Shown: positions 27,037-42,935 of the stretch, piece after piece
How positions within the stretch are numbered: the first letter of the stretch is position 1
Layout of the letters: each line of letters opens with the position of its first letter
Source: Bacilli bacterium
Lineage (GTDB): Bacteria > Bacillota_I > Bacilli_A > RF39 > UBA660
Length of the DNA: 64,000 bases
NCBI GenBank assembly: GCA_017459425.1
Contig: JAFUCZ010000030.1
Coordinates: 83,651-147,650, forward strand
Direction of reading: 5' to 3'
Made by a program: the position numbers and the translations under genes
Notes under the pieces: model-generated
What the model was told of the DNA's origin: nothing
What the model saw: only the letters and a program-made list of their open reading frames with translations
Databases searched by the model: none

Positions 27037-27065
27037 GTTCGTAGAACTATATCACTTCTACGAAC
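27037..27065. repeat. lox-like site 1A: GTTCGTAGAA-CTATATCAC-TTCTACGAAC flanked by A5/T5
   Basis: Perfect 10-bp inverted arms flank a 9-bp asymmetric centre. The site also has bidirectional terminator geometry. Confidence 0.8.
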
Positions 27066-27224
27066 TTTTTAATTTGTTTATGATAAGTCTATTATATTAT
27101 ATATTGCCCTTATTTTCAATATTTTGGTAATGTTTTTTTTAAAAACTATTGACATATTTTGGTAATGTTTTTTTTAAAAACTTGTTCAGTAATTTACAAT
27201 ATTATGTCGGAAGGAGGGAGATTT

Positions 27225-28157
27225 ATGATTTTTAAAAGGATAACATTTAAATATGTTATGTATGAATGGTTAGAAGGTAGAAAGGGTAACATCAAGGAAT
27301 CAAGTTTCAACAAGTATATGTTCTGTATTGAAAAATATCTAGATCCGTATTTAGGAGAGTATGAATTTAAAAAGATAAAGGAGAAGAATATTTTCAATTT
27401 CTATGAAGAAGATGAAATAAATAAACTTAGTAATTCAACTAAGAATATATTATTGATAATTATTCAATCATGTATTAGTTATGGTGTTGAAAAAAAGTAT
27501 CGAAGAAACTCATTAGAATTGGATATTAAATTTCAAAAGAAAAGGAATGAAATTACTTACTTTACTCAAAAAGAACAAAATATAATCGAAGAACACATTA
27601 ATAAAAATATGAATATAAGAAATTTAACTATACTTTTTTCTTTATATACAGGTGTTAGAATTGGTGAATTGTGTGCTTTAAAAGGTACTGATATTGATTT
27701 TATTAATAATACTATAAGTATTGATAAAACTGTTTTGAGAGTAAAGAATCCAGAAGGTAAGCCTAAAACAAAACTAATTATTGGAAAACCAAAAACGAAA
27801 ACATCAATAAGGATTATACCAGCACCAGCATTTATAATAAATCATTTAAAGAAGTATATTAAAGATAAAAATGATTTTATTTTTACTGGTAATGATAAAC
27901 CAAAAGATCCGAGAACATTAGAAAAATATTTTTCTGAATTATTGGATAGATTAAACATTAAACAAATTAATTTTCATTCTTTAAGACATACTTTTGCGAC
28001 TAGGTTAAGAGAACAAAAAGTAGATATTAAAGTTATAAGTGAATTGCTGGGACATTCCTCTTGGAAATTTACACAAGACATATATGTTCATGCTTCATTT
28101 GAGTCAAAAAAGAACTCAATAAATATACTTGGTAAGTCAAGAAAGAAAAGTTCGTAG
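27225..28157 (+). CDS. tyrosine site-specific recombinase (phage-integrase family)
   Basis: The C-terminal HSLRHTFATRL...LGHSS...DIYVH carries the catalytic R/H/Y. The RBS GGAGGGAG is present. The stop codon lies inside site 1B. Confidence 0.8.
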   Translation: MIFKRITFKYVMYEWLEGRKGNIKESSFNKYMFCIEKYLDPYLGEYEFKKIKEKNIFNFYEEDEINKLSNSTKNILLIIIQSCISYGVEKKYRRNSLELDIKFQKKRNEITYFTQKEQNIIEEHINKNMNIRNLTILFSLYTGVRIGELCALKGTDIDFINNTISIDKTVLRVKNPEGKPKTKLIIGKPKTKTSIRIIPAPAFIINHLKKYIKDKNDFIFTGNDKPKDPRTLEKYFSELLDRLNIKQINFHSLRHTFATRLREQKVDIKVISELLGHSSWKFTQDIYVHASFESKKNSINILGKSRKKSS

Positions 28158-28178
28158 AAGTGATATAGTTCTACGAAC
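28150..28178. repeat. lox-like site 1B: GTTCGTAGAA-GTGATATAG-TTCTACGAAC (exact inverse of 1A)
   Basis: The central 9 nt is the reverse complement of the 1A centre. Confidence 0.8.
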
Positions 28179-28230
28179 CATCTCTTGATATTTAAAATAT
28201 ATTGTGTTTTTAAGAGATTTAGGAGGAAGT

Positions 28231-28317
28231 ATGACAAATCAAGAATTGATAGAACTTATTTTAAAAATGGATAAGATTAAATATGAGCTTAAAGATTTAG
28301 AATTGAGGTTGAAATAG
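28231..28317 (+). CDS. small ORF (28 aa, MTNQELIELILKMDKIKYELKDLELRLK) possibly translationally coupled to the next gene
   Basis: An RBS AGGAGGAAG is present. The stop lies 1 nt before the next ATG. Confidence 0.25.
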   Translation: MTNQELIELILKMDKIKYELKDLELRLK

Positions 28318-28318
28318 T

Positions 28319-30799
28319 ATGAAAAAAATAACAGCGGCAAATATTAAAGAGTATATCCAAGAAATTGCAGATGCAATTCAAGAATTTAATCGTCAAATTG
28401 ATGCAATTAATAATCAAGAAGAAGAATATCGTGAAACAGGTGAATTTAAAATTGTAGACCTTGCTACTCATGAACGAGGAATATCTGGTGGTATGGGGAT
28501 AAGCAATGTTAACAATTATATAGATTCATGGAAAGAATATATTGAAAATGGTGGGAAAAATGTTGAAGAGGCAAAACAGAAGATAGAATATTTAACAAAA
28601 GTTCTAGAACTTATAGAAAATGATTCAAAATATGACTTAAAAAAAGAGAAGGTAGATAAAACCTTACAACAATTTAAAGAAAAGAAAGAGAAACTTGAAG
28701 AATTAATTAGTCAGTTAAGAAAAGAAATAAAATCATGTAATACAATTCTTAAAGATATTGCATTTACAAGTATTTTAAATAATCCAGAAGCAATGGGTAA
28801 AGTTATTGATGGACTTATTGCAAACGCAAACGAAGACTTGAAACAGAAAGAAGAAAAGAAAAAACAATTACTAGAAGAATTGGAACAAAAAGAAAAAGAT
28901 GAAAAATTATTATCTGAACTTTCATGTGGTGTTAGAAGTGAATATAACTTTACACCTTTTGGTAGGTTCAATCCTAAGAGCGTGGAATCATTTAGAGAAT
29001 ATTTATCAGAAAATAATTTATATGGACAATTAGAAAGCTTTATCAAAAGATTTGCAAATGATGATACATTAGAAGTTTTAAATTATTTAAAGAATGAACC
29101 AAATGGGGCATGGGAAAAATACTACAATGCATATCCAAATGAATTTAGAACATTGGCAAAGTATACATATGTTTTGATGCAAGCAAAAGCATCTTTGAAA
29201 ATACCACAAGATTATATTGATAAAACATGTGAGAACCAAGATGTTGAATTTGATGATAAAATATATTTTGGTGATCTTAACTTCATATCAAAAAAGGATT
29301 TGATAAAATATATTAAGAATATCACAAGTGAAAGTTTAGGTAAAGATAATATAGACAACTTTAATAGATTATGTAGTTTAAGTTATAATGATTTTTGCAA
29401 ATTAGTATCGAAAATAAATTTGGATACTGTAACATATGAAGAATGTTTACTATTATTTGAAATGGTAAAACCTATGGAGAGAACTTATCTTTTAGATTCA
29501 GAAGGAGAAAATTTTAGTAAAGCATTACAAAGTTACTATAAGCAAGAAAAAAGAAAAGAATATCCACATGATACAGGTCGCATTATTATCTCAAGAGATT
29601 TAGAGAAAATAAGAGAAAGAAGACCTTACATTAAGTCAGAATTATCACGAGTAGAAGATAGTATAGTTCAATCTCAATCATATATAAAATCATTAGAAAC
29701 TGGGGATAAAAAACATTTAATTGAATTGAATTTAAATGGATTTCAAATTAGAGAAGGTGTAATTCCAGTACCTGACAGTGTGGATTGGGCAATAGTTGGA
29801 ATAAATGGTGTTCATAATCGTATAGGTGTAAATCAAGAAGAATTTGATTCTATTAATAGTAAAATTAACGACTTCGAAAACTCTGAATATGGAAAATTAT
29901 TTGTTAAATATGTAAACGAGAATGGAGTCGACTTTGAAGAACCTTATGCACAATTATCAAAAATCGTAATAACATTTAATTCCAATATAAAACATGCTGA
30001 AGGTTTACTACGTTATGAAGAACGAACTGAAAAAGAAAAGTTTGAAAGTCAGATAAAAGAATTAGAAATAGAACTTGAAGAATTAAAAAATAGTGCAGAA
30101 GATAGAAAATTCACAAAGAAAAATGGCGAACTCGTTAAAGGAAAAGTTGGTAGATTTTTATTTAAAATCTTTAACAGAAAACAATACAAGAATAATATTG
30201 AACAAATAACAAATTCTGAAAAGAAAATCAACGAAGAAAAAGAAAGAATAATCGCTGAATCTCAAAGTCCAAGTAGTGTTGTTACTGCAAAGAAAGAACT
30301 TGAAAGATTGATACATGAAAGAGAAAATGCTATAACAAAAATTCTTAATTGCGATTTAGCTACTGCTGAAAAAATAGTTGAAGAACTTGAAAGTATTTCT
30401 CCTTATTCATTAACAGAATTCATGAGTGGTGATACACCTTTACAGAATAGTGAGAATGCTGAAAAAAATAGAGAATATCTTAATCTGTTGCAACGTAGGA
30501 AACAAATGAGTAGTGAAATTAATAGAGATAAATTAAATTACTTTGATTTAATAAAGAAATTGCTGAATGATTCAACACTACCTATTCATATTAGAAAAGA
30601 ATTAGAATTAATTATTTCTAGTGATGAAGTTCGTAGTATTGATGTTTCAAGGGAATCTGTAGCTTATGCCAGAGAATTAGAAAAACATTCATATGATCCA
30701 ACTCTAACGGATTCTATAAGAACAGGAATTATTGATCCAACTATGGATAGTGATGAAGCTGTAACAATATTGAACGAAACACAAGGAAAATCAAAATAA
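28319..30799 (+). CDS. large (826 aa) coiled-coil rich protein, function unknown
   Basis: Long K/E-rich heptad regions. No enzymatic motif recognised. Confidence 0.4.
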   Translation: MKKITAANIKEYIQEIADAIQEFNRQIDAINNQEEEYRETGEFKIVDLATHERGISGGMGISNVNNYIDSWKEYIENGGKNVEEAKQKIEYLTKVLELIENDSKYDLKKEKVDKTLQQFKEKKEKLEELISQLRKEIKSCNTILKDIAFTSILNNPEAMGKVIDGLIANANEDLKQKEEKKKQLLEELEQKEKDEKLLSELSCGVRSEYNFTPFGRFNPKSVESFREYLSENNLYGQLESFIKRFANDDTLEVLNYLKNEPNGAWEKYYNAYPNEFRTLAKYTYVLMQAKASLKIPQDYIDKTCENQDVEFDDKIYFGDLNFISKKDLIKYIKNITSESLGKDNIDNFNRLCSLSYNDFCKLVSKINLDTVTYEECLLLFEMVKPMERTYLLDSEGENFSKALQSYYKQEKRKEYPHDTGRIIISRDLEKIRERRPYIKSELSRVEDSIVQSQSYIKSLETGDKKHLIELNLNGFQIREGVIPVPDSVDWAIVGINGVHNRIGVNQEEFDSINSKINDFENSEYGKLFVKYVNENGVDFEEPYAQLSKIVITFNSNIKHAEGLLRYEERTEKEKFESQIKELEIELEELKNSAEDRKFTKKNGELVKGKVGRFLFKIFNRKQYKNNIEQITNSEKKINEEKERIIAESQSPSSVVTAKKELERLIHERENAITKILNCDLATAEKIVEELESISPYSLTEFMSGDTPLQNSENAEKNREYLNLLQRRKQMSSEINRDKLNYFDLIKKLLNDSTLPIHIRKELELIISSDEVRSIDVSRESVAYARELEKHSYDPTLTDSIRTGIIDPTMDSDEAVTILNETQGKSK

Positions 30800-30822
30800 A
30801 TAATGATATTTAACAAAAAAAG

Positions 30823-30851
30823 GTTCGTAGAACTAACATAGTTCCACGAAC
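30823..30851. repeat. lox-like site 2A: GTTCGTAGAA-CTAACATAG-TTCCACGAAC + T7
   Basis: Same architecture. A-tract and T-tract flanks. Confidence 0.8.
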
Positions 30852-31018
30852 TTTTTTTCATGTCTAAATTGTACTATAAAATAAAGAAATATGCAATATT
30901 ATGGCAGTCTTTTTGTATATGCAATTGTAAACTTTTACATAATTTTTTCAAATTGTATTTTTTTATTATATTTAATTGGTTTATAATAAGAAAAATTGTA
31001 TAATTAAAAAAATAATAG
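30852..31018. promoter_or_regulatory. invertible-module candidate 2 (167 bp, non-coding, homologous to modules 3-5)
   Basis: Bounded by inverse sites 2A and 2B. Shares the ...TAAATTGTACTATAA...TATGCAATAT...TTGTAAACTTTTACAT... blocks. Confidence 0.55.
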
Positions 31019-31047
31019 GTTCGTGGAACTATGTTAGTTCTACGAAT
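31019..31047. repeat. lox-like site 2B: GTTCGTGGAA-CTATGTTAG-TTCTACGAAT (inverse of 2A including the arm variant)
   Basis: The centre is the reverse complement of 2A. The T-to-C arm variant is mirrored. Confidence 0.8.
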
Positions 31048-31088
31048 ATACTTGAAAGATTACTTCAACAATATTGTAGGAGGTATAT

Positions 31089-31541
31089 ATGGGATTGTTT
31101 GATATGCTTAATAAAAATGATATAAAAAAAAAATATTTATCGATTGGTGATAAAAGACTTGATGAAGAAGATATGCTAGAAAGAAAAGATTTATATGAAA
31201 TATTTAAGAAATATCAAGGATATGAAAAGACAATTGATTTATCAGATAACAAAGAAGTAAATAAAAAGATTTTAAGTTTGATGTCAGAACTATTCAATTT
31301 AAAAATTGTTTGCAAAAATTATAATGAATATGAAGATTTATATAATAATTTTAATGAAATAACAATTAATAAAATTAATACTTTAAATATCCTTGAATGT
31401 ATGGCTTTAATAACTTATATTCAAAGACAAGATTATTGGTCTGGTGGATATTCTTCGCCATATTTAAATAATACTAAAAATGGATTTATTCCACAAATAA
31501 TAAATAGAATAATTAGTTTATATGAAAGTAGAGGAAAATAG
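31089..31541 (+). CDS. MGLFDM-N-terminus family small protein
   Basis: Starts with MGLFDMLNK. RBS AGGAGG. Confidence 0.45.
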   Translation: MGLFDMLNKNDIKKKYLSIGDKRLDEEDMLERKDLYEIFKKYQGYEKTIDLSDNKEVNKKILSLMSELFNLKIVCKNYNEYEDLYNNFNEITINKINTLNILECMALITYIQRQDYWSGGYSSPYLNNTKNGFIPQIINRIISLYESRGK

Positions 31542-31543
31542 TT

Positions 31544-32332
31544 ATGAATAAAGATAAAGATAGTGTTATAAAATCAGGCAAAGTTCTTTTTACAATGGGT
31601 ATAATTTTTTCTGTATTATTATTTTTATTACTAATAGTAGCAATTAATGATTCGATTGGAGCAGTAATTTTAGTTATATTATTATATGTTATCATATCAC
31701 CATTATTAATTCTGGGAGTATGTATGAAAAAAAATCCTGAAAAATATATAAAAACATCTATTTCGTATATCTATGGTGCTGATAGTACAATATATTTAAA
31801 TAAAGGATATACTTATGATATTGCTTGCAATTTATATTGTAAAAGAACAGGTAAAACAAATGAAGAATTAACTGAGTCTGATGAAGATGAAATATGGCAT
31901 TGTTCGTATGATGATTTTACTTATTTAATGGCTTGGATTATTGAAAATGGTTATTATCAATATTCTTCTCAACACTATGGTGAGGATGGAGAAAAAGGTT
32001 GGATGAAAACTATTGATAAAATTAAGAATAGAACTTATGAGGCTACTGATTTCTTTCTTTTAACAGATGGAGTTTTATTCAAGGATGAAATATCAGATCA
32101 AATTGTTGATTTTATACAGGAATATTCAAATAGTTCACTATGTAATGATGGGCAATTTTATCTTAAAGAGGAAAATGTAATAGGTGGTTTGGAAGTAGAT
32201 GTACAAGACTTTGCACGAAAACAACTTAATTCTGATATTTATGGCTTTAAATTCAAATGGGATGATTATGATAAATTCAAAGTTTATATAGATACTGCGT
32301 ATAAGAAATATTTAGATAAGGTAGGAAAATAG
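31544..32332 (+). CDS. membrane-anchored hypothetical protein
   Basis: An N-terminal TM helix pair. Confidence 0.4.
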   Translation: MNKDKDSVIKSGKVLFTMGIIFSVLLFLLLIVAINDSIGAVILVILLYVIISPLLILGVCMKKNPEKYIKTSISYIYGADSTIYLNKGYTYDIACNLYCKRTGKTNEELTESDEDEIWHCSYDDFTYLMAWIIENGYYQYSSQHYGEDGEKGWMKTIDKIKNRTYEATDFFLLTDGVLFKDEISDQIVDFIQEYSNSSLCNDGQFYLKEENVIGGLEVDVQDFARKQLNSDIYGFKFKWDDYDKFKVYIDTAYKKYLDKVGK

Positions 32333-32334
32333 TT

Positions 32335-32682
32335 ATGGGATTGTTTGATATGTTTAAAAGTAAAGGAATATATTCATCATTGACTAATGAACAAAAGCAA
32401 GAATTGATTAAGAACGGAGAATTAAAACCATTATATTTAATTGGATTAAGATTTGGTGGCTCTGATAAAATTGATAATATGGTTTATGCTCCATCACAAG
32501 CAGTTGAACAAAAAAATAAGATAGATGATGAATTAGAAAACTATATGAAACAAGGTAGAACTGTTAAAGGATATATGTGCATTCCTTCATATAAAGGAAA
32601 ATGTAGTATTCCATCTAAATTAAAAATACAAGCATTTATTGATGGAACAGAACAATTTGTTAGAAATATAGATATTTGGTAG
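32335..32682 (+). CDS. MGLFDM-N-terminus family small protein
   Basis: Starts with MGLFDMFKSK. Confidence 0.45.
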   Translation: MGLFDMFKSKGIYSSLTNEQKQELIKNGELKPLYLIGLRFGGSDKIDNMVYAPSQAVEQKNKIDDELENYMKQGRTVKGYMCIPSYKGKCSIPSKLKIQAFIDGTEQFVRNIDIW

Positions 32683-32691
32683 AGGTGCTTT

Positions 32692-33366
32692 ATGAAAAAA
32701 ATAGGAAAAATTATTTTTTGGATTATATGGATAGGAATACTTTTATTTTTACATATAGGAATGGCAGCAGGTTCTGAGTATAATGATTCCTCAACAAAAA
32801 CTGTTGGAATAGTTGGAATTGTTATCTGGTGGGTATTGACTATTGGAATAACTGTAATAGTTTTGAAAATTCAAGATAAAAAAGAAGAAAAAAAGAAAAT
32901 CGAATATAAAGAAAAAAATATTGAAACAATTGAGTATGAAGATGACAGATATGGAAAAGTTAGTTTTAAACACAATCTAGAGAAACATATTTTATCAGCT
33001 GATATAAAAAATGTTAATTTTGCTGGAAAAAATTTAGAGGCTAGTATTTTAAATATTGACGATAAGACTGATTTAAAAACTATCTTTGATAATTTAAAGA
33101 AATATAGTGATAATTCAAAATCAATTAAAGAAAGAATTTATCCTGAACTTGCTGGCACTTTAAAAAAAGTAGATAATTATGATAAAGATGGAAATTTATT
33201 TGAACCAAGTGAACAATTTTTAAGAGATAATTTTGAATTTAGTACAATAGTGATTCAAGATTCGAAGACTATAAGCTTGTGGGGAAGTTGGGATTCTCCT
33301 TATGAACAAGATTATTCAATTAATTACAATTCTAGCGATGATACAATTGAAGTTGAAAGTTTATAA
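32692..33366 (+). CDS. membrane protein, hypothetical
   Basis: Two N-terminal TM helices. Confidence 0.4.
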   Translation: MKKIGKIIFWIIWIGILLFLHIGMAAGSEYNDSSTKTVGIVGIVIWWVLTIGITVIVLKIQDKKEEKKKIEYKEKNIETIEYEDDRYGKVSFKHNLEKHILSADIKNVNFAGKNLEASILNIDDKTDLKTIFDNLKKYSDNSKSIKERIYPELAGTLKKVDNYDKDGNLFEPSEQFLRDNFEFSTIVIQDSKTISLWGSWDSPYEQDYSINYNSSDDTIEVESL

Positions 33367-33384
33367 TGTGAATGAGGTTAAAAA

Positions 33385-33840
33385 ATGGGATTATTTGATA
33401 TGTTTAAGAAAAATAAAACAAATAATAATATAAAGCCACAAATTTATATATCACAAGTTGAATATGATGGTATACCAATTGAAATAGAGTTTAACATAGA
33501 TGAGAGTAAAGAACATCTATCAGAAGATTATGCCGTATTACAAAACGAAGGTATAGATAAAATAATAAAAGACCGTTTTATACCATGGTTTAAGACTGAT
33601 AAATTTAAAGATAGAGATGATAATTTAATTTATGAAGGTTTAAAGATTTATGATATAGTATACTGCTATGGTATGATTGATGCTCGATATTCACCTACAC
33701 AACAACAAGAAATGGCTGGGCAATTTACATTTTTCTTTGAAAGTGGAAATGAATATACATCAGATATGTTGGAATCAACAGCAATGGAAATTTATGTATT
33801 AAATGGAAAAATAGTTAAAGTAGATGGATACGAAGTTTAG
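33385..33840 (+). CDS. MGLFDM-N-terminus family small protein
   Basis: Starts with MGLFDMFKKNK. Confidence 0.45.
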   Translation: MGLFDMFKKNKTNNNIKPQIYISQVEYDGIPIEIEFNIDESKEHLSEDYAVLQNEGIDKIIKDRFIPWFKTDKFKDRDDNLIYEGLKIYDIVYCYGMIDARYSPTQQQEMAGQFTFFFESGNEYTSDMLESTAMEIYVLNGKIVKVDGYEV

Positions 33841-33848
33841 GAGGAAAT

Positions 33849-34445
33849 ATGGGATTATTTAGTATGTTTAAGAAAGAAAGTAATGAAAAACCAGATATAT
33901 CAGAAATAGCATATGATTATGATGGGTATGATATAGCATTTGAAAGTGGAAAAACAGAACCAAAATTATATTCTGAAATAAATAATATTGTTACTAATAA
34001 TAATTTTGATATTAATAATATAAGTGAGTATAAGAATTTAAATATTAATTCTGATTATGACACATTTCTAACATTTTATGATTCTTGGTTAGAAGAACTA
34101 AAAAATAATAATTATGTTATACATTTGGATAATTATACTAATATAACTGACTTTGCCAACAAAATAAATCAATTATTAGATAGAATAAATTCCAAAAAAA
34201 AGATAGATGTTGATTTAATTACAAATGAATATAAGGAAGAATTGAAAAAATATTCTTTTATGGGTAATGATATAGAAGAAAATTTTAATTACGATGTACT
34301 TGAGGCAAATATAGTAGCACAGGAATTAAGAAAAATTGGATACGAGTTAATAAATTTCTTTATTGGATATGATAATAATGATAAAACTATTATTAAAATT
34401 GATGATATAGAAAAACTAAAAGAAATAGAAACTAAGATTAAATAA
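33849..34445 (+). CDS. MGLF(S)M-N-terminus family protein
   Basis: Starts with MGLFSMFKKE. Confidence 0.45.
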   Translation: MGLFSMFKKESNEKPDISEIAYDYDGYDIAFESGKTEPKLYSEINNIVTNNNFDINNISEYKNLNINSDYDTFLTFYDSWLEELKNNNYVIHLDNYTNITDFANKINQLLDRINSKKKIDVDLITNEYKEELKKYSFMGNDIEENFNYDVLEANIVAQELRKIGYELINFFIGYDNNDKTIIKIDDIEKLKEIETKIK

Positions 34446-34461
34446 TGGAGGAGTTGTTAAT

Positions 34462-34905
34462 ATGACAAATAAAACTAATTTAGGATTAATTATTGAAAAT
34501 TTAGATTTAGATGCTAATTTACAAGAATTTATAGAAAATGTAGTTGAGGAGAATTTTAGAGAATTAGATCAACCACTTTATGATGAACAAGGAAATTTTA
34601 TATATAATAAAGCACTTGTAGAATTCTTAAAGTCTGATGAAAAAATCAAATCATTATCTAATGATGAATTTAAATTAGTACTTGATATGTTGGTAAAAGA
34701 TATACTTCATAGAATAGAAGCGAAGGGAAATTCTCATATAAGAGCTACTGAAGGTGCTTATGATGAAGAAAATAGAAGTTATTATGGTAGTTCTGAAAGT
34801 GCATATTGGCATTTATTAGAACAATATTTAGACGATTTTAATTATAATAAAAGTATTTCAGATTTCTATGCTGAATATTTAGAAGAAAATGAAAAAAAGA
34901 AGTAA
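34462..34905 (+). CDS. hypothetical acidic protein
   Basis: An ORF with an RBS GGAGGAG. Confidence 0.35.
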   Translation: MTNKTNLGLIIENLDLDANLQEFIENVVEENFRELDQPLYDEQGNFIYNKALVEFLKSDEKIKSLSNDEFKLVLDMLVKDILHRIEAKGNSHIRATEGAYDEENRSYYGSSESAYWHLLEQYLDDFNYNKSISDFYAEYLEENEKKK

Positions 34906-34928
34906 AAGAATAAAGGTGGAGATTATAG

Positions 34929-35645
34929 ATGTTAAACTATAAAAAAATAATATGTAGTATAGCTATATGCTTTATGTGTTTTATTGGTATGAACTCAGTA
35001 ATGGCAGCCGAAGTGACTACTGAGAAACTTGCTGAAATTTTAAGAGAAAGTGATTTGTTGGATGCATTATATTTTGAAGATTCAAAAATTACATTTGAAA
35101 CAACGGACACTACACTTAAAATACATGAAATAAATGGATTTTATGATGATGAAATTGATGATGTTGAAACTGATACGATTTATACATTGATTGATAATAT
35201 CTTAACTTATGAATATCTTGATATGGAAAATCCATCATACGCACAAATTGTTCCTGATGAATTATGGACAGATGAGGTAATAAAAGCAATTTATACTCTA
35301 AAAGGGCATGAAAATGAAACAATAAATTATGAAAATCCAGAATTTATACTTTATGAGAAATTTGAAACTGCTGGGCAACCGCAAGGAACAAAAAGATTAA
35401 AAATAGATTTGAGTAAAATTGAAGACTTAAATCCAGAAACCACATCTGTTGATGATGATAATCAATCTTCTAATGTAGTTGAATCAACAGAAAATAGTGT
35501 TTCGAATAATGTTGATAACAAGAAAACATCTAGTACAACAGAAAATCCTAAAACAGGGGTTTATGGTGGAAGTATATTATTAGTTGTAAGTGCAATTGTA
35601 GGCTATATAGTTATCAGAAGGAAAAATAAATTCAAAAATATATAA
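34929..35645 (+). CDS. secreted cell-wall-anchored protein (signal peptide; C-terminal NPKTG sorting motif + TM + basic tail)
   Basis: An N-terminal signal, then ...TENPKTGVYGGSILLVVSAIVGYIVIRRKNK. Confidence 0.5.
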   Translation: MLNYKKIICSIAICFMCFIGMNSVMAAEVTTEKLAEILRESDLLDALYFEDSKITFETTDTTLKIHEINGFYDDEIDDVETDTIYTLIDNILTYEYLDMENPSYAQIVPDELWTDEVIKAIYTLKGHENETINYENPEFILYEKFETAGQPQGTKRLKIDLSKIEDLNPETTSVDDDNQSSNVVESTENSVSNNVDNKKTSSTTENPKTGVYGGSILLVVSAIVGYIVIRRKNKFKNI

Positions 35646-35653
35646 TAAAAAAA

Positions 35654-35682
35654 GTTCGTAGAAGTACCATACTTCCACGAAC
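35654..35682. repeat. lox-like site 3A: GTTCGTAGAA-GTACCATAC-TTCCACGAAC + T5
   Basis: Same architecture. Confidence 0.8.
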
Positions 35683-35872
35683 TTTTTACTTACACCTAAA
35701 TTATATTATAATTCGTGGATTTATGCAATATAATAATAGTTTTTTGATATATAATAATGTCAAATTTTACATTTTTTTAGAAAAAATTATTGTTTTTATA
35801 TATAAACTTTATAAATTGTCATAATACTGGATTTTATAAGTATTAACACCAATTTAATTGTAGAAAATAAAG
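35683..35872. promoter_or_regulatory. invertible-module candidate 3 (190 bp)
   Basis: Contains TAAATTATATTATAA, TATGCAATAT and the palindromic ATGTCAAATTTTACAT. Confidence 0.55.
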
Positions 35873-35901
35873 GTTCGTAGAAGTATGGTACTTCTACGAA
35901 C
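35873..35901. repeat. lox-like site 3B: GTTCGTAGAA-GTATGGTAC-TTCTACGAAC (inverse of 3A)
   Basis: The centre is the reverse complement of 3A. Confidence 0.8.
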
Positions 35902-35947
35902 AATAGATAATATTATAAGTTATCGGTATTGTATGAGGAGGAAATTT

Positions 35948-36244
35948 ATGAACAATAATCAAGATTATCAAACAACACAAATGTCAAATTTAGGTGTTAA
36001 TGCTTCTGGTAACCCATTACAAATGAGAGGTTTAATGAATGTTTTAAATTCTAGTTATCACGAAGGTATAACACTAGAAGAACTACAAGTAGCAGTTGGA
36101 ACAGCAATTCAGCAACAATTACAACAATCACTACAAGGTATGGATCAAGCATCAGCACAAACAGTTATGTCATTTTTACAAGGAGTAGATTATACTTTAA
36201 CACAAGATTATAATAAGACTGTTCGTTCAGATAGAACATTATAA
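35948..36244 (+). CDS. hypothetical Q-rich small protein
   Basis: ATG after the RBS GAGGAGG. The upstream track extension runs through site 3B and is unlikely. Confidence 0.4.
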   Translation: MNNNQDYQTTQMSNLGVNASGNPLQMRGLMNVLNSSYHEGITLEELQVAVGTAIQQQLQQSLQGMDQASAQTVMSFLQGVDYTLTQDYNKTVRSDRTL

Positions 36245-36260
36245 GAATTAGGAGTTATTT

Positions 36261-36626
36261 ATGATTTACAATATTTATTATAATACTTTAAATAAAGAAT
36301 TAAAGAAGGCAATTTATTCAAAATCAATTTCGATTGAAGATTTAAAAAAAGTGTATGAAAACTTAAAAATAAAAAATAACAAAAAAAGGAAAACTATTAA
36401 TTTAGTTATGATAATAGTAATTGTTATATTTGGTATTTTGGGTATTCCTACATTTATAAATTCAAACAATCCTGAATTTACTAAATTTATGTTATTATTA
36501 TTAATACCTTTAATCGTAGTTATTTATGGAATTGTTTATTTTACACAAGTAGGATTAATAAAAATCCAATTTAATAATGCAATAAAGAAGAATTATCCTG
36601 AATTAGTGAATGAATTAAAATTGTAA
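36261..36626 (+). CDS. small membrane protein
   Basis: Two TM helices. Confidence 0.4.
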   Translation: MIYNIYYNTLNKELKKAIYSKSISIEDLKKVYENLKIKNNKKRKTINLVMIIVIVIFGILGIPTFINSNNPEFTKFMLLLLIPLIVVIYGIVYFTQVGLIKIQFNNAIKKNYPELVNELKL

Positions 36627-36639
36627 ATAGGAGGTTTAT

Positions 36640-36942
36640 ATGGGAAATAATGAAAAATTAGACCAAATGGTGCATGATGAAATGTATAAGAATTTGAATA
36701 GAACAGAAGAATTACTTAGTCACTTATATGAAATGATAAAAAATGATCCAGAAAATAAAGAATTAACTAGAATTTTTGAAGGAGTTCTTTATATTGCACA
36801 AGGTCAAGTAAGAACTAATGCAATTGTTAGTGAAACATATTTTGGTAAGGGAATTAAGGAATATTCAATGAAGATTGCAAAAAAAAGAGAAGAAAACTTG
36901 AAAAGTTTATCTGAACATGCCAAAAAAGGAAGAACAAAGTAA
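36640..36942 (+). CDS. hypothetical protein
   Basis: RBS AGGAGG. Confidence 0.35.
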   Translation: MGNNEKLDQMVHDEMYKNLNRTEELLSHLYEMIKNDPENKELTRIFEGVLYIAQGQVRTNAIVSETYFGKGIKEYSMKIAKKREENLKSLSEHAKKGRTK

Positions 36943-36957
36943 GTTGGAGGAAATAAT

Positions 36958-37506
36958 ATGCAAGAAGAATTAAAAATGTTAGAACAAAAAAAGACAGAGG
37001 CTTTAAGTAAGTCATTGACACTTCATTCACAAGCAAGTGATAAAGAAGCTAAGATGGAAAATTTTATTCAGAAATGGTTAAATGATGAATCAGAATTAAA
37101 TAATGAAAGTATGCAACAATTACTTGATTCTGTTAATGAACAAGTTGCTGAATTAAAAAGACAAGCAGAAGAGTCATGGAAAGAATATAAAAAATTAGAT
37201 AGTGAAATATCATTAAAACAAAATGCAGTTTATAGTGTAAGAACAAATTTAGGAATGAGTCCTGATGAAATTGTTATAACAGGAGGAGTACTATCTTCTA
37301 ATGCAAGTGAATCACATTTAATTGGAAGAAGTAAAACACCAGAAGAATTAGAAATAGATAGGTTAAATGCTCTTGCAATGATTAGAGAAAAAGTTGCTAA
37401 AAAAGAAATTACATTAGCTCATGCATCTAAGTTAAAAAATGATGTTAATATTGCTTATGGATATGCACCACAACAACAAGAAAATCAAAATGGTATGTCT
37501 AAATAA
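36958..37506 (+). CDS. coiled-coil hypothetical protein
   Basis: RBS GGAGG. Heptad-rich. Confidence 0.35.
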   Translation: MQEELKMLEQKKTEALSKSLTLHSQASDKEAKMENFIQKWLNDESELNNESMQQLLDSVNEQVAELKRQAEESWKEYKKLDSEISLKQNAVYSVRTNLGMSPDEIVITGGVLSSNASESHLIGRSKTPEELEIDRLNALAMIREKVAKKEITLAHASKLKNDVNIAYGYAPQQQENQNGMSK

Positions 37507-37620
37507 ATTATGGATAGTAAAAAAATACTATCTTTTTAATTTCTTTATCAAAAATTAAAAAAATATAGTATAATAAGTAAGTAAATTAGTGTTTTTTAAT
37601 TTTTGAGGGAGAAAAGTGTT

Positions 37621-38538
37621 ATGAGAAAAATTATAACAAGTTATATTAATCCTGATATGGATGGTATAGCTTTAATGTATGCTTATTGTGAGTATTTAAG
37701 AAAAAAAGGTGAAGATGCCTATTATTATTTTGAAGGAACATACAAAAAAGAAGTTGGAATTGTTTTGGATACATTTAATATATCATTAAATCCAATAGAT
37801 AAAGTATTAGATGATGATAAGATAATTTTAGTTGATACAAATTATATTCAAGAAATTCCTAATACAATAACTGAGAATAAGATTGTAGAAGTAATAGATC
37901 ATCACAAAAGAGAACAATGGATAGATGAATATAATGTAAAAGCACAAATTGAGCCTCTCGGTTCAGCTTCAACAATAGTTGCTGAAAGATTTAAAAATAG
38001 TAATTTAGAGATTTCAAAAGAATCAGCAATTTTATTGTATTATGGTATTATATCAAATACAATGAACTTAAAAATCAAATTAACAAATCAAAGAGATATT
38101 GATATGGCAAATTGGTTAAAAAGTTTAGTACCCGAAATCACAGACAGTATTACTAATGAGATTTTTGTAAAAAAATCTGAAATTGGTAACAATTTAAGGG
38201 AAGAAATGGAAGTAGAATTTAAAGATCAATTTATGACTATATCATGGTCTATGGGACAATTAGAAGTTGCAAATGTTGAAGACTTTTTAGAAAAATATGA
38301 AGATAGTATTAGAAATGTACTAGAAACTGTTAGTAAAGAAAAAGAAGTTGAATATATGTCTGTTAATTGTATGGATATAATTAATGGTTATAGTATTATT
38401 GTCGCATTAAATGATAAAACAGCAAATTTAATTTCAAAATCAATTGGAGTGAACTTTATTGAATTGAAAGCAAAGATTAATGAACTTATAAGTAGAAAAG
38501 AAATTGTGAAAGTAATCAGAAATATATATAGTAAATAA
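37621..38538 (+). CDS. DHH-family phosphoesterase (family II inorganic pyrophosphatase-like)
   Basis: An N-terminal NPDMDG motif, a DHH motif VIDHHK and a GSASTIV motif are present. Confidence 0.6.
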   Translation: MRKIITSYINPDMDGIALMYAYCEYLRKKGEDAYYYFEGTYKKEVGIVLDTFNISLNPIDKVLDDDKIILVDTNYIQEIPNTITENKIVEVIDHHKREQWIDEYNVKAQIEPLGSASTIVAERFKNSNLEISKESAILLYYGIISNTMNLKIKLTNQRDIDMANWLKSLVPEITDSITNEIFVKKSEIGNNLREEMEVEFKDQFMTISWSMGQLEVANVEDFLEKYEDSIRNVLETVSKEKEVEYMSVNCMDIINGYSIIVALNDKTANLISKSIGVNFIELKAKINELISRKEIVKVIRNIYSK

Positions 38539-38558
38539 TTATGATTTAGGAGGTTTTT

Positions 38559-39119
38559 ATGATATATATAACAAGACACGGACAAACAAATTGGAATGTA
38601 CAAAAGAAAGTAATGGGTAGATGTGATGAACCATTAAACGAAACGGGATTAAGTCAAGCAGAAGAAACAAGAAATAACTTAATGAATACAGATATTGATT
38701 TGATTATTTGTTCACCATTAAAAAGAGCAAGACAAACAGCAGAGATAATTAATAGAGATAGAAATATTCCTATAATATATGATGAAAGAATTATCGAAAG
38801 AGATTTCGGTGAATTTGAAGGAATGGAAACAAAGAATTTTGATTTCCATGGTTATTGGAATTATTATAAGAATATGCAATTTGAGAGTGCTGAAAATATT
38901 CAAGTATTCTTTAAAAGAGTATATGATTTTTTAGAAGATATTACTGAAAAATATAAAGATAAAAATGTATTATTGGTTGCGCATGGTGGAATTAGTATCC
39001 CAGTAGCATGTTTCTTTAATGGAAATATACCAGAAGAATCACTCGTTGATGCAGGATTAGTTTTAGGTAATTGTCAAGTTGCATCATATACAGTGAATAA
39101 TAAAAAAATAAACAAGTAA
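38559..39119 (+). CDS. histidine phosphatase (phosphoglycerate-mutase-like) family protein
   Basis: An N-terminal RHGQTNWN catalytic motif is present. AHGG lies near the C-terminus. Confidence 0.7.
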   Translation: MIYITRHGQTNWNVQKKVMGRCDEPLNETGLSQAEETRNNLMNTDIDLIICSPLKRARQTAEIINRDRNIPIIYDERIIERDFGEFEGMETKNFDFHGYWNYYKNMQFESAENIQVFFKRVYDFLEDITEKYKDKNVLLVAHGGISIPVACFFNGNIPEESLVDAGLVLGNCQVASYTVNNKKINK

Positions 39120-39132
39120 TTACATAAAAAAG

Positions 39133-39161
39133 GTTCGTAGAACTCTATAACTTCTACGAAC
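39133..39161. repeat. lox-like site 4A: GTTCGTAGAA-CTCTATAAC-TTCTACGAAC + T6
   Basis: Same architecture. Confidence 0.8.
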
Positions 39162-39342
39162 TTTTTTCTATGATTAAATTATACTATAAGATATTGTTTT
39201 ATGCAATATAGCAAATAATTTTTTATTAATGAGTTATGTCAAATTTTACATTTTTTAATTCTAATTTGTATATATTTTTTTTAAATCATGGAATTCTATT
39301 GTGTACCAAATGAAAAAGGAATTTATAACATTATTAAAATAG
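39162..39342. promoter_or_regulatory. invertible-module candidate 4 (181 bp)
   Basis: Contains TAAATTATACTATAA, TATGCAATAT and ATGTCAAATTTTACAT. Confidence 0.55.
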
Positions 39343-39371
39343 GTTCGTAGAAGTTATAGAGTTCTACGAAT
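39343..39371. repeat. lox-like site 4B: GTTCGTAGAA-GTTATAGAG-TTCTACGAAT (inverse of 4A)
   Basis: The centre is the reverse complement of 4A. Confidence 0.8.
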
Positions 39372-39405
39372 AATGATTAGTAAATATATTTTGTGGAGGT
39401 AAAAT

Positions 39406-40431
39406 ATGAGAAAAAAGATATTTATTATGATTTTAGGAATAGTAATGTTTATTCCAATAGCACACGCAAAAGATGTTACAAAAGAGGAATTTGTTAGTAA
39501 TTTACAAAAATATGTAGAAGAATTTAATTCAGGTTCACCTACATATGAAGAATATCCATATGGTTCTGGAATTAGAAAAAATATGAAACAAATAATACTC
39601 ACAAATAATGATGAAGGAATTAATTTAAAAAATGGTGATTATGAAACTAATGTTGTATTCAATGAAACAGAGCAAACTGTAAATGGTATAGCAATGAATA
39701 TAGATAATATTAATGATAATTCTACTGAAGTTGAAAAAAAATTATATTATGAAAATATTATGTATAAATATATTCAATTACAAATGATAGGCTTATCTAT
39801 AATTGATTCGAAAGGAATAGATAAAGAATTAGGTTTATCGTCATATGATGTTTATGGTTTAAGAACAGGGACAGATACAATACTTAAAGATCTTTCATTT
39901 AACTTTAGTATTGATTTATCTAAAGTGGAGGTAATAGATGATGATGGATATGAATATCTTGTTCCAAAACTATCAATCGAAAAATTAAGTGATACTAAAT
40001 TAAGGATTTATTTTGATTTTGAAAGATATGATGAAGAACGATTTGATTGGGATAATATACCGATTGATTTATTAATTTTTGAAGATTCATCTTCTGTTTC
40101 AACAAATAGTATTACGCAAATTGAAGATGGATATGTTGATGTAAATATATTGCCAGATAAAGAATACATGTTTAAAGGTGTTGCATATCATCCAACATTA
40201 TTAGGTTATTTGCGATTAAGTGAGCCAGTATATTATAATGTACCATCGCAACAAGATAATCAAGCGACAGATAATAATAATGATAATAATGCTACTAATA
40301 CACAAAAAACTATATCTAATACAATAGACAATCCAAAAACAGGTGTGAAAAACTATATGACAGTTGGTATATTAGCAATCTTAATATTAGGAATAACATA
40401 CAAATTATATAAGAAAAAGGAAAGTATTTAA
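39406..40431 (+). CDS. secreted cell-wall-anchored protein (signal peptide; C-terminal NPKTG motif + TM + basic tail)
   Basis: An N-terminal signal, then ...IDNPKTGVKNYMTVGILAILILGITYKLYKKKESI. Confidence 0.5.
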   Translation: MRKKIFIMILGIVMFIPIAHAKDVTKEEFVSNLQKYVEEFNSGSPTYEEYPYGSGIRKNMKQIILTNNDEGINLKNGDYETNVVFNETEQTVNGIAMNIDNINDNSTEVEKKLYYENIMYKYIQLQMIGLSIIDSKGIDKELGLSSYDVYGLRTGTDTILKDLSFNFSIDLSKVEVIDDDGYEYLVPKLSIEKLSDTKLRIYFDFERYDEERFDWDNIPIDLLIFEDSSSVSTNSITQIEDGYVDVNILPDKEYMFKGVAYHPTLLGYLRLSEPVYYNVPSQQDNQATDNNNDNNATNTQKTISNTIDNPKTGVKNYMTVGILAILILGITYKLYKKKESI

Positions 40432-40442
40432 GGAGGACGATT

Positions 40443-41099
40443 ATGGGATTATTTGATATGTTTAAGAAAAAAAAGGTAGAACAAAAATCAAATCTACCTG
40501 AGAACAAATATTATAAAGGAAATGATATTTTTAAAGATGATGAGGTAAAGGGTAATGAAATATCAATTAGAATTATAAAGAGTATTGAAATACCTGGACA
40601 TTCTAATCTTTATGAATGTACTGTCCAATATGGAATACCAAGTGCACTGATTACAGATGCTTGGGAAAATGAAGATTTACGCTTTTTTGAAAAATTAATT
40701 ATGGAGTTTGATAAAAATGAAATGATTAATAATCCTGATTATGCTAAATTTGTTTTAACAAAATTATTAAGAAGGGAAAGAGTAAGAGAATTACACGACA
40801 TTGAATTTGGTTTAATCGATGGAAAGAAAAATGGAAATTATATTGGTTCTGTTTCAAAAAATAATGGTAATTTATCTATTACAATGAATGATGAAATAGG
40901 AACAGTAATAGAAACATTACCAGCAACAAAAAAGCTTCAAGAAAATTATAAAGAATATATATCTGAAAAAGAGCAAGTACAAAGAAATATAGACGAAAGC
41001 ACATCTACAAGCAGAAAAGAAAGAATTGAATATTTAAAACAAGAACTAGCAAATCTAGAAAAAAGAGAAGAAGAATATCAGAGTTCTAAAAATAAATAA
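40443..41099 (+). CDS. MGLFDM-N-terminus family protein
   Basis: Starts with MGLFDMFKKKK. Confidence 0.45.
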   Translation: MGLFDMFKKKKVEQKSNLPENKYYKGNDIFKDDEVKGNEISIRIIKSIEIPGHSNLYECTVQYGIPSALITDAWENEDLRFFEKLIMEFDKNEMINNPDYAKFVLTKLLRRERVRELHDIEFGLIDGKKNGNYIGSVSKNNGNLSITMNDEIGTVIETLPATKKLQENYKEYISEKEQVQRNIDESTSTSRKERIEYLKQELANLEKREEEYQSSKNK

Positions 41100-41161
41100 A
41101 TGATTTATGACTATTTAATATTGAAAATTAGATAGTCTTTTTTTATTTAGTAATAAAAAAG

Positions 41162-41190
41162 GTTCGTAGAACTACAATACTTCTACGAAC
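41162..41190. repeat. lox-like site 5A: GTTCGTAGAA-CTACAATAC-TTCTACGAAC
   Basis: Same architecture. Confidence 0.8.
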
Positions 41191-41370
41191 TTTCCCCATG
41201 TATAAATTATATTATATATTTCTTAAATATGCAATATGTTAATTAAATTTTTTGCTCATGAAAATGTAAAATTTTAACATTAATTTTTTTAATTACTAAT
41301 ATGTAATATGAAAAACTGTATTTTATTATTTTGCAATAGTAAAACATATTTTAACTTAATAATAGTTAGG
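41191..41370. promoter_or_regulatory. invertible-module candidate 5 (180 bp)
   Basis: Contains TAAATTATATTATATAT, ATATGCAATAT and ATGTAAAATTTTAACAT. Confidence 0.55.
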
Positions 41371-41399
41371 GTTCGTAGAAGTATTGTAGTTCTACGAAT
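41371..41399. repeat. lox-like site 5B: GTTCGTAGAA-GTATTGTAG-TTCTACGAAT (inverse of 5A)
   Basis: The centre is the reverse complement of 5A. Confidence 0.8.
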
Positions 41400-41433: not shown

Positions 41434-42369
41434 ATGGGAATAGAGGAATTAAAGCAACTTCAATTACAAATTATAAGAAAGAATAAAACTTGTAATATTA
41501 TTGGGGTATTGTTATTTATATTTTCATCATTAGTTTTATGGGTTAATTATTTGTCTAAATATAATTTAATAGAGTTAACAATAATGGCGATATTAATTGA
41601 TTTAGTATTTTGTGTTATTATCATGGCATTTGTTAAAAGTAGAGTTAATGGTAAGAATATTCGAACTTTCTATAAAGAGTTTAAAAATGTTTTCGTGTTA
41701 AGTTCGCTTCAAAATGTTTTTGATAATATAACATACTATCCAACAAAAGGTTTTTCTAGAGAATTTGTAAAAAGTATCGGAATGATTGATACTGGTGATA
41801 GTTTTAATTCGAATGATTATATATCTGGTAAATATAAAAATATTTCATTTGAACAAGCAGATATGCATATTCAAGAAGAACATGAAGAAGAAGATAAAGA
41901 TGGAAAAAAAGAAACTGTCTGGGAAACAACTTTTTTAGGCAGATTAATGATATTTGATTTCAATAAGAGTTTTAAATCAGATATACAGGTAGCAAGTCGT
42001 TATTTCTCTGCTGAATCATTACCTTGGAGTAAAAGATTCTCAAGAGTAAGAATGGAAGACATTGAATTTAATAATTCATTTAATGTTTTTGCTGAGAGTG
42101 AACATGAAGCATTTTATATTTTAACCCCACAATTTATGGAAAAAATAAAAGATATAACAAAGAAATTAGGATGTAGTGTTATGTTTTGTTTTGTTAAAAA
42201 TAAATTGCACATTGCAGTGAATAATTATGAAGATTCTTTTGAACATAATGTTTTTAAAAAAATTGATGAGAAGAAAATTCAAGAAAACATAACAAGAGAT
42301 ATAAAATTGATTACAAACTTTGTCGATGAGTTAAGTTTAGATAATAACTTATTCAGAAGGGAGGTGTAG
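41434..42369 (+). CDS. membrane protein (DUF3137-like partner of LemA)
   Basis: ATG after the RBS GGAGTGAG, which follows site 5B. Two TM helices. Confidence 0.4.
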   Translation: MGIEELKQLQLQIIRKNKTCNIIGVLLFIFSSLVLWVNYLSKYNLIELTIMAILIDLVFCVIIMAFVKSRVNGKNIRTFYKEFKNVFVLSSLQNVFDNITYYPTKGFSREFVKSIGMIDTGDSFNSNDYISGKYKNISFEQADMHIQEEHEEEDKDGKKETVWETTFLGRLMIFDFNKSFKSDIQVASRYFSAESLPWSKRFSRVRMEDIEFNNSFNVFAESEHEAFYILTPQFMEKIKDITKKLGCSVMFCFVKNKLHIAVNNYEDSFEHNVFKKIDEKKIQENITRDIKLITNFVDELSLDNNLFRREV

Positions 42370-42370
42370 T

Positions 42371-42919
42371 ATGAGTCTTACAATTATTTTAATTATTGCA
42401 AGTATAATAATACTCATAATATTAGGCTGGTATATATCAGTTTCTAACAAACTAAATAGAGCAGTCGTTAAAATTGATGAATCATTATCAGGAATTGATG
42501 TGGCATTAACTAAAAGGTATGATGTTTTGACAAAAATGATTGATGTAGTTAAAGCATATACTAAACATGAAAAAGAAACACTATTTGAGGTAATTAAACT
42601 TCGCAAGGATATGTCTATACAAGAGAGAAACAATGTAAATCATGTGATGGATGAGAATTTTAGGAAAATTAATGTAGTCGCAGAAAATTATCCAGAATTA
42701 AAATCAAGTGAAAATTATAAAACATTGCAACAATCGATAGCAGATGTTGAAGAACATCTACAAGCATCAAGAAGACTTTATAATTCAAATGTCTCAATAT
42801 TTAATCAATTATTAGTTTCATTCCCAACAAGTAGTATTGCTAAAAGTAAAGGACTAACTAAAAAAGATTTCTTTGAGGCAGATGAGATAAAAAAAGAGGA
42901 TGTAAAAATCAATTTATAA
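42371..42919 (+). CDS. LemA-family protein
   Basis: An N-terminal TM followed by the LemA signature SNKLNRAVVKIDESLSGIDVALTKRYD. Confidence 0.7.
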   Translation: MSLTIILIIASIIILIILGWYISVSNKLNRAVVKIDESLSGIDVALTKRYDVLTKMIDVVKAYTKHEKETLFEVIKLRKDMSIQERNNVNHVMDENFRKINVVAENYPELKSSENYKTLQQSIADVEEHLQASRRLYNSNVSIFNQLLVSFPTSSIAKSKGLTKKDFFEADEIKKEDVKINL

Positions 42920-42935
42920 AATTTGAATAGAGGAG

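Follow-up and report, generated by a model that had tools for sequence, protein, structure and literature searches.

The 64-kb stretch of DNA analyzed here (hereafter the window; 64,000 nucleotides of contig JAFUCZ010000030.1 in the Bacilli bacterium assembly GCA_017459425.1, low-GC at ~25% G+C, translation table 11) very probably carries a clustered array of five inverton switches served by a tyrosine recombinase that is encoded in the first switch. Ten 29-bp sites of the form GTTCGTRGAA-N9-TTCYACGAAY occur in the window, where 0 are expected by chance, and they make up five inverted pairs (site A on the left, site B on the right of each). As an initial annotation of the window had described, one of the five segments carries a tyrosine recombinase gene and the other four are homologous modules ahead of gene cassettes. 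By our measurements these modules are 167–190 bp long, and each of the five B sites is 34–53 nt upstream of a ribosome-binding site and ATG.

Recombination sites and the recombinase gene

Searching the window with GTTCGTAGAA-N9-TTCTACGAAC and allowing up to two mismatches, we recovered all ten sites at the starts first reported for them (Table 1), and 100 dinucleotide-preserving shuffles used as a control returned 0 matches. A relaxed search (up to five mismatches, spacers of 7–10) together with a half-site search found no further real site within the 64-kb window. In an unbiased inverted-repeat scan the five pairs were the sole separated inverted repeats apart from two exceptions, a non-cognate match between 1B and 2A, which have common arms, and an unrelated overlapping palindrome near 45.7 kb.

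The center of site B was the exact reverse complement of the center of site A in 5/5 pairs, the centers themselves read as originally listed, and none was common to two pairs. Centers of different pairs differed at 2–5 of 9 positions (or 1–4 of the inner 7), and every center was asymmetric, with 3–7 of 9 positions differing from its own reverse complement. Two inverted recombinase-binding arms of ~10–13 bp around an asymmetric overlap of 6–8 bp make up the minimal core site of the loxP/FRT/dif type, to which the initial annotation had rightly compared the sites, and the window has this architecture as 10-N9-10. The arms were less uniform than had been claimed, as only five of the ten sites (1A, 1B, 3B, 4A, and 5A) have fully perfect 10-bp arms; there was one mismatch each in 2A, 3A, 4B, and 5B, and two in 2B. 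The related claim that an arm variant is mirrored within its pair held for pair 2 but not for the same inner-arm variant in pair 3 of the window; pair 3 of a related strain (L006) does mirror it. The arm of loxP (ATAACTTCGTATA) has the hexamer TTCGTA in common with the window arm, probably by chance, and the window recombinase is not detectably close to Cre, as there was no Cre chain among its PDB matches.

The recombinase matched PF00589 (Phage_integrase; 5.1e-29) and PF14659 (SAM-like N-terminal; 5.1e-09), and its gene closes with a TAG stop codon within the left arm of site 1B. In a phmmer alignment to XerA (5hxy) the segments YTGVRIGE, HSLRHTFAT, LGHSS, and DIYVH aligned with the Arg, HxxR, His, and Tyr motifs, respectively, giving the protein both the catalytic R...HxxR...H/W...Y signature and the N-terminal core-binding domain of tyrosine recombinases. 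Its scores against the NCBIfam XerC/D/A/S models were far below the cut-offs, and for this reason we regard it as an Xer-sized "simple" tyrosine recombinase and not as an Xer orthologue. A scan of genome contigs with the recombinase protein gave two distant matches only (21–26% identity), and no other recombinase gene was noted beside the array in our survey of open reading frames (ORFs) and domains in the window. A tblastn search of plasmids and phages returned relatives of at most 35% identity over most of the protein and one partial match of 38.6%, so that the family is unrepresented there; in a scan of viral contigs for the generalized site we saw five isolated single sites and no pairs, which is not this system.

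Inverted copies and recombinase homologs in public assemblies

The initial annotation had proposed that the paired sites invert the DNA between them, and public assemblies, found with the window's own proteins and giving evidence from assembled contigs alone, support this for module 5 in this species and for the recombinase cassette only in a relative. The same-species set comprised ~15 fetched loci from fewer distinct contigs, and all of them were in the window's orientation except L026 (ENA ERZ27256836). In L026 the module 5 interior matches that of the window as an exact reverse complement (180/180), beside a left flank identical to the window over 1500/1500 positions; beyond the flipped module, the contig retraces its left flank in reverse-complement form. 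Since L026 joins the left junction of the inverted state to that of the reference state, both left junctions are required in that sample, and the structure is the one to be expected from a strand-collapsed assembly graph when a sample holds both orientations. We rejected a simple fold-back by polymerase or assembler as the source of L026, as this would give the flank, the site, and the reverse complement of the flank, and not the flank, site A, and the reverse complement of the inner end that we saw. A module with centers CTACAATAC/GTATTGTAG and its promoter facing site B was found within a 63-kb contig of a related strain (L005; JGI Ga0129307), so both orientations of module 5 occur in nature. 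A further inverted-state junction was seen in L014, in which the reverse complement of the right flank, a site, the cassette, a second site, and the right flank follow one another; the recombinase in this cassette (P0004) is 67% identical to that of the window and the arms are identical.

Recombinase cassettes systematically break assemblies: three contigs of ~1.1 kb (L039, L015, and L020) both begin and end at, or a few bases from, the sites flanking the cassette. Separately, for ~30 of the best 120 of the 2841 homologs the longest contig was only 1.0–1.25 kb. No rearrangement between non-cognate sites was present in any of the fetched same-species contigs.

The 2841 homologs of the recombinase are mostly unnamed. 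The gene was flanked by 10-N8/9-10 sites in five of the six homolog loci examined (51–67% identity), and the arms were GTTCGTAGAA in the closer homologs and GTTCGTGAAA in P0035 and P0060, the two sets farthest from the window recombinase among those examined (Table 1). One relative (L016) has, besides the recombinase cassette, three short switches that precede surface-protein genes; the four centers are all distinct, and the arms around the recombinase gene match those around the neighboring short switches. Taking all site pairs together, centers were exactly mirrored in 15/15 pairs from six organisms and none was reused within the loci of one organism. Among the best 120 of the 2841 homologs, 45 end in xS, as expected if the TCG-TAG of the arm closes the ORF, and several end in ..KFVE.., which corresponds to the arm in another reading frame; these endings suggest that many more members of this uncharacterized family have an inverton of their own. 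The association of gene and site across relatives supports the recombinase as the probable cognate enzyme of this site type. We give even odds to the broader proposal that these proteins form a large undescribed family (~310 residues, from low-GC gut and rumen bacteria) residing in self-inverting 1.1-kb cassettes, which spawned miniature promoter switches that retain the arms of the enzyme and evolve private crossovers, and in which the site doubles as a terminator with an invertible T tract.

Predicted switching and alternative explanations

The direction of the promoters, a terminator role for site A, and the construction of segment 1 as a switch like the others were all absent from the initial annotation. 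Segments 2–5 are homologous, with a mean column identity of 74%. When eight segments were aligned in one sense (among them segment 1, by its left end, plus two additional modules and a flipped one from a related strain), the invariant columns were ATATTG(C/A)A(T/A)-N17-TA(T/C)AAT, and because the 17-nt spacing is fixed while the spacer sequence is variable we read this as a sigma-A promoter signature. The five predicted promoters in this assembly are all on the minus strand, adjoin site A, and are directed away from the plus-strand cassettes, for which reason all five switches are read as OFF. The distance from site B to the next start codon (34–53 nt) is too short for another promoter, so the cassettes would depend on transcription from or through the switch. 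Plus-strand promoters beside site B were considered as functional ones and rejected, since they are not conserved between modules. An Rfam search of 26.5–42 kb (E ≤ 0.1) found no RNA family, and the modules are not a known riboswitch or small RNA. Modules 2–5 also have a semi-palindrome, TGT(C/A)AAATTTTACA, ~25 nt upstream of the -35 box, seen as ATGTCAAATTTTACAT at 35757–35772 upstream of the -35 box of module 3, which could be a site for a regulator or an accessory factor.

Each site A stands between an upstream A run and a downstream T run, and the B sites are without the T run. With the site itself able to form a hairpin (10–13-bp stem, -10 to -16 kcal/mol), site A and its A and T runs look like a bidirectional intrinsic terminator, as predicted from these features. 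The T run downstream of site A belongs to the segment that inverts. In L026, where the module is flipped, CCTAACTA stands after site 5A in place of TTTCCCC, and what was the T-rich stretch is found, as its complement, ahead of 5B.

In segment 1, the predicted promoter aligns with those of the modules and fires leftwards through site 1A at present; after inversion it would fire through 1B into 28231–30799. Two perfect 29-nt direct repeats (Table 1) sit between this outward promoter and the recombinase ribosome-binding site, inside the segment, and are possibly a site for a regulator or an accessory protein.

In the mechanism we propose, the sites are core sites in which 10–11-bp recombinase-binding arms are inverted around a 7–9-bp asymmetric crossover region. 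The segment 1 recombinase would bind the common arms of all five pairs and exchange strands within the pair-specific overlap, and because partner sites carry the same crossover in opposite orientation the outcome would be inversion. Tyrosine recombinases need homology in the overlap region, as engineered lox spacer variants illustrate, and non-cognate sites should therefore not recombine productively. The mismatch between centers may in this manner insulate the pairs from one another, which would guard the cassettes against deletion (A × A) or block inversion (A × B). In the OFF state the promoter would fire into the site A terminator, whose hairpin and outer T run would end its transcript, and the upstream operon would also end there by means of the inner T run. 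In the ON state the promoter would stand beside site B, which has no T run, and read into the cassette; site A, now without the inner T run, would be a weaker terminator, and transcripts from upstream that read through it may raise expression. Segment 1 has the same build plus the enzyme gene, making it a Hin-like self-contained segment with a tyrosine enzyme. In its current orientation the recombinase transcript could pass 1B into the 28-residue ORF and the 826-residue gene, so cassette 1 may toggle between low and high expression and not between strict OFF and ON. The gene cassettes, some of which encode surface proteins, could thereby switch independently.

Several observations weigh against this array of switches or parts of it. 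Just one of ~5 same-species contigs over module 5 was flipped, and for modules 2–4 and segment 1 of this species the fetched contigs showed the reference orientation only. Both L026 and L014 are palindromic mis-joins, for which an assembler artefact at hairpin-like sites is possible, although the junctions in them are those that inversion predicts and unlike those of a simple fold-back. Between centers 2 and 3, and between centers 3 and 5, the inner 7 nt differ at one position only, for which reason insulation may be leaky or may depend on flanking S positions. TTGCAT, the -35 box, agrees with the consensus at 3/6 positions only, and the module promoters were not picked by a promoter scanner; moreover, promoter-like strings abound in AT-rich DNA (115 found versus 124 expected). 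Lastly, one homolog of 61% identity (P0010, L009) has no flanking sites.

We considered it unlikely that the invertons are real and are flipped by another recombinase (a Xer-type or other invertase encoded elsewhere), or need a second enzyme, with the segment 1 enzyme acting only on its own segment. There is precedent in C. difficile, where RecV is encoded at a distance from its switches, some of which seem to need other enzymes (PMC5903667, PMC2784873), and our view of gene content covered 64 kb of the genome. However, the ten sites have essentially identical arms, those flanking the recombinase included, the arms at the gene and at the neighboring short switches match in a relative as well (L016), and the array has no second recombinase gene noted next to it.

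It is less probable still that the 1.1-kb cassette is, or formerly was, a small mobile element with terminal inverted repeats, that modules 2–5 are its miniature non-autonomous derivatives, and that the array reflects their spread. Segment 1 and the modules do have common left ends (site A, T run, and promoter), a 1.1-kb gene between inverted repeats resembles an insertion sequence, and the P0004 cassette has Mob_Pre, Fic, and serine-recombinase genes around it. Yet each "terminal repeat" is a complete palindromic core site with a pair-specific center in a geometry that inverts and does not excise, the window and L040 (recombinase 66% identical) have syntenic left flanks, and each module is placed exactly between a terminator position and the ribosome-binding site of a cassette in the same orientation. 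No target duplications were noticed at the cassettes, for which no systematic search was made. This explanation may account for how the array arose and still be compatible with what it does now. As improbable, to our judgment, is a dispersed intergenic element of fixed orientation (a terminator plus a hairpin in the 5'-untranslated region, akin to repetitive extragenic palindromes or miniature inverted-repeat transposable elements) with a recombinase unrelated to it or inactive on it: site A does resemble a bidirectional intrinsic terminator, and the modules are clearly paralogous copies in one orientation in the window and most contigs, but a terminator needs no second hairpin 170–190 bp away with a reverse-complement loop, as all 15 pairs have, flipped copies exist, and the same sites flank the recombinase gene across 51–67% identity with arms that differ in the more distant homologs.

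Known systems and cassette contents

The novelty of the array had been overstated, since one-tyrosine-recombinase arrays of invertible promoters have been described for the Mycoplasma penetrans mpl genes, and multi-site invertases for C. difficile and B. fragilis. The kind is already known; invertible-promoter arrays, master invertases, a junction terminator, and a self-carried invertase have each been described. In the literature searched we did not find described the combination of full lox-like palindromic sites with common arms and private centers, a site that doubles as a split terminator, and a self-inverting tyrosine-recombinase cassette conserved across a large family, and a search with the arm sequence returned only unrelated primer matches.

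The closest counterpart is the M. penetrans mpl (P35) family, which according to summary accounts has independent invertible promoters and the tyrosine recombinase MYPE2900 (PMC2268961, PMC3599477). In these accounts many short promoter elements with short inverted repeats each stand ahead of their own surface-protein gene and are switched ON and OFF independently, and the inversions are reportedly the work of one tyrosine recombinase whose own gene is near these genes, much as proposed here. Unlike mpl as so summarized, the window comes from a low-GC gut or rumen bacterium that uses translation table 11, and it has multi-gene cassettes, a recombinase gene inside one switch, a site that would double as terminator, and full palindromic 10-N9-10 cores with pair-specific centers. 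C. difficile RecV is a single tyrosine recombinase reported to invert several switches of 150–230 bp (cwpV/Cdi1, flg/Cdi4, and others; PMC5903667), and the OFF state of cwpV has been proposed to depend on an intrinsic terminator that forms where the left repeat meets the invertible DNA (PMC2784873), which is like the split terminator we infer. RecV is encoded away from its scattered switches, which have imperfect 21-bp repeats with little likeness between loci (PMC5903667), whereas the switches in the window are clustered, have common arms with differing centers, and carry the promoter inside; we set the two apart by these descriptions.

Two serine-recombinase systems bear comparison. The Salmonella Hin segment, as outlined in two papers on other switches, is ~1 kb long and carries the invertase gene and an outward promoter that serves the adjacent gene in one orientation (PMC5903667, PMC2784873). 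Segment 1 likewise places an invertase gene within its own promoter-bearing invertible segment, and the likeness is functional only (invertase gene, outward promoter, 1.1 kb), as Hin is a serine recombinase with a Fis-bound enhancer and one site pair and the window has a tyrosine enzyme and five segments with the same arms. B. fragilis Mpi is one invertase for at least 13 promoter switches with a consensus repeat (PMC5903667). Mpi is also a serine recombinase and its switches are scattered over the genome, in contrast to the clustered switches and tyrosine enzyme here. Serine invertases cross over at a 2-bp core, and a pair-specific overlap of several base pairs is not known as part of the Mpi system.

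The R64 shufflon is an array of tyrosine-recombinase sites for one enzyme, Rci (PMC11852207, PMC5430464). The five centers in the window are all different, which sets the array apart from a shufflon. Shufflon sfx sites are known to have a single core in common, which lets every inverted pair recombine and the segments shuffle; the pair-specific centers here should instead give independent two-state toggles. In the engineered sites lox511 and lox2272, which are man-made, the arms are kept and the spacer is changed such that one enzyme catalyzes independent events, and this logic of common arms and private spacers is the one we propose for the window. Finally, PMC11892184 lists an inverton group 139 with a tyrosine invertase group 35 in Firmicutes_A (class Clostridia), which may or may not be the same family as the window recombinase.

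The interest of this array lies in its mechanistic clarity and its potential for tools, as switching by DNA inversion is not itself new. It makes testable the open question of what stops one invertase from recombining the wrong sites of adjacent switches and deleting the genes between them, with a candidate answer, common arms and private overlap regions, readable in the sequence. If true, this would explain how a multi-switch tyrosine invertase spares its own regulon from deletion, and the sites would be naturally evolved orthogonal ("heterospecific") sites for one Cre-like enzyme, a single-enzyme, multi-channel inversion toolkit. Such natural orthogonal sites of one small recombinase could serve multiplexed genetic memory or barcoding beside Rci/sfx and lox variants. 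For metagenomics, elements of this type break or mis-join assemblies (as in L026, L014, and the 1.1-kb contigs) and hide phase-variable cassettes, some with surface-protein genes, in uncultured gut and rumen bacteria.

Table 1. Sites, segments, predicted signals, and cassettes of the window, with inner lengths of the segments, and sites flanking recombinase homologs
Feature	Positions	Strand	Description
Tyrosine recombinase gene	27225..28157	+	310 residues; Phage_integrase and SAM-like N-terminal domains
Site 1A	27037..27065	.	GTTCGTAGAA-CTATATCAC-TTCTACGAAC; 34-bp perfect inverted repeat with 1B; segment 1 inner length 1084 bp
Site 1B	28150..28178	.	GTTCGTAGAA-GTGATATAG-TTCTACGAAC; no T run after
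Switch 2	30823..31047	.	2A 30823–30851, center CTAACATAG; 167-bp module; 2B 31019–31047, center CTATGTTAG
Switch 3	35654..35901	.	3A 35654–35682, center GTACCATAC; 190-bp module; 3B 35873–35901, center GTATGGTAC
Switch 4	39133..39371	.	4A 39133–39161, center CTCTATAAC; 181-bp module; 4B 39343–39371, center GTTATAGAG
Switch 5	41162..41399	.	5A 41162–41190, center CTACAATAC; 180-bp module; 5B 41371–41399, center GTATTGTAG
Segment 1 predicted outward promoter	27091..27119	-	TTGAAA-17-TATAAT; 11/12; aligns with module promoters
Candidate recombinase promoter	27173..27200	+	TTTAAA-16-TACAAT; 9/12; consensus match only
Direct repeats	27119–27147, 27154–27182	+	two perfect 29-nt copies of ATATTTTGGTAATGTTTTTTTTAAAAACT; period 35
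Module 2 predicted promoter	30868..30896	-	TTGCAT-17-TACAAT; faces 2A (read as OFF)
Module 3 predicted promoter	35700..35728	-	TTGCAT-17-TATAAT; faces 3A (read as OFF)
Module 4 predicted promoter	39178..39206	-	TTGCAT-17-TATAAT; faces 4A (read as OFF)
Module 5 predicted promoter	41206..41234	-	TTGCAT-17-TATAAT; faces 5A (read as OFF); faces 5B in L026
Cassette 1	28231..30799	+	28-residue ORF (28231–28317) and 826-residue coiled-coil protein, no family assignment
Cassette 2	31089..35645	+	eight genes; four start MGLF(D/S)MF/L; last (34929–35645) with NPKTG sortase motif
Cassette 3	35948..37506	+	four small genes
Cassette 4	39406..41099	+	341-residue secreted protein with NPKTG sortase motif; 218-residue MGLFDMFKK protein
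Cassette 5	41434..43454	+	DUF3137 protein; LemA-family protein; 172-residue membrane protein
Homolog locus L013 (P0004)			67% identity to window recombinase; site GTTCGTAGAA-N8-TTCTACGAAC
Homolog locus L040 (P0003)			66% identity; site GTTCGTAGAA-N8-TTCTACGAAC
Homolog locus L009 (P0010)			61% identity; no flanking site found
Homolog locus L016 (P0044)			55% identity; arms ATTCGTATAA / GTTCGTAGAA, N9
Homolog loci L030-L037 (P0035)			55% identity; site GTTCGTGAAA-N9-TTACACGAAC
Homolog locus L038 (P0060)			51% identity; site GTTCGTGAAA-N9-TTTCACGAAC

The cassette proteins mostly gave nothing above the cut-offs of Pfam and NCBIfam, the exceptions being DHH, His_Phos_1, DUF3137, and LemA. In each of the products of 34929–35645 and 39406–40431 we saw a signal peptide together with a C-terminal NPKTG that precedes a hydrophobic stretch and a basic tail, and from these features they look like sortase-anchored surface proteins under control of the predicted switches; sortase-anchored proteins are typical phase-variable cargo. 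PADLOC identified no defense system among the cargo proteins, giving only a weak LmuB match for the 826-residue protein, which we attributed to its coiled-coil composition. Five small ORFs (starts 31089, 32335, 33385, 33849, and 40443) have in common the N-terminal MGLF(D/S)M(F/L)(K/N)K with no family above cut-off, and this peptide could be a targeting tag or the mark of a paralogous family.

The DHH and histidine-phosphatase genes that follow cassette 3 (37603–39119) are absent in the related strain L006 and may lie outside the switched unit. In a comparison of L006 8401–8585 with window 37507–39117, switch 4 stood directly after the 182-residue gene in L006, with a site center, CTCTATTAC, one base off that of window 4A; there was no recombination site at the window boundary 37507–37602. 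Gene content next to the recombinase cassette also varied in relatives. In L040 (4710–6129) an N_methyl/DUF6273 protein comes after the cassette, and behind it a pair resembling a diversity-generating retroelement (bAvd and reverse transcriptase). The genes after the P0035 cassette in L030–L037 vary by sample, with those for 264-residue, 585-residue, 550-residue, and SpaA pilin proteins in one arrangement versus 331-residue and 550-residue proteins in another and 46-residue and 331-residue proteins in a third, which could reflect strain variation or further rearrangement.

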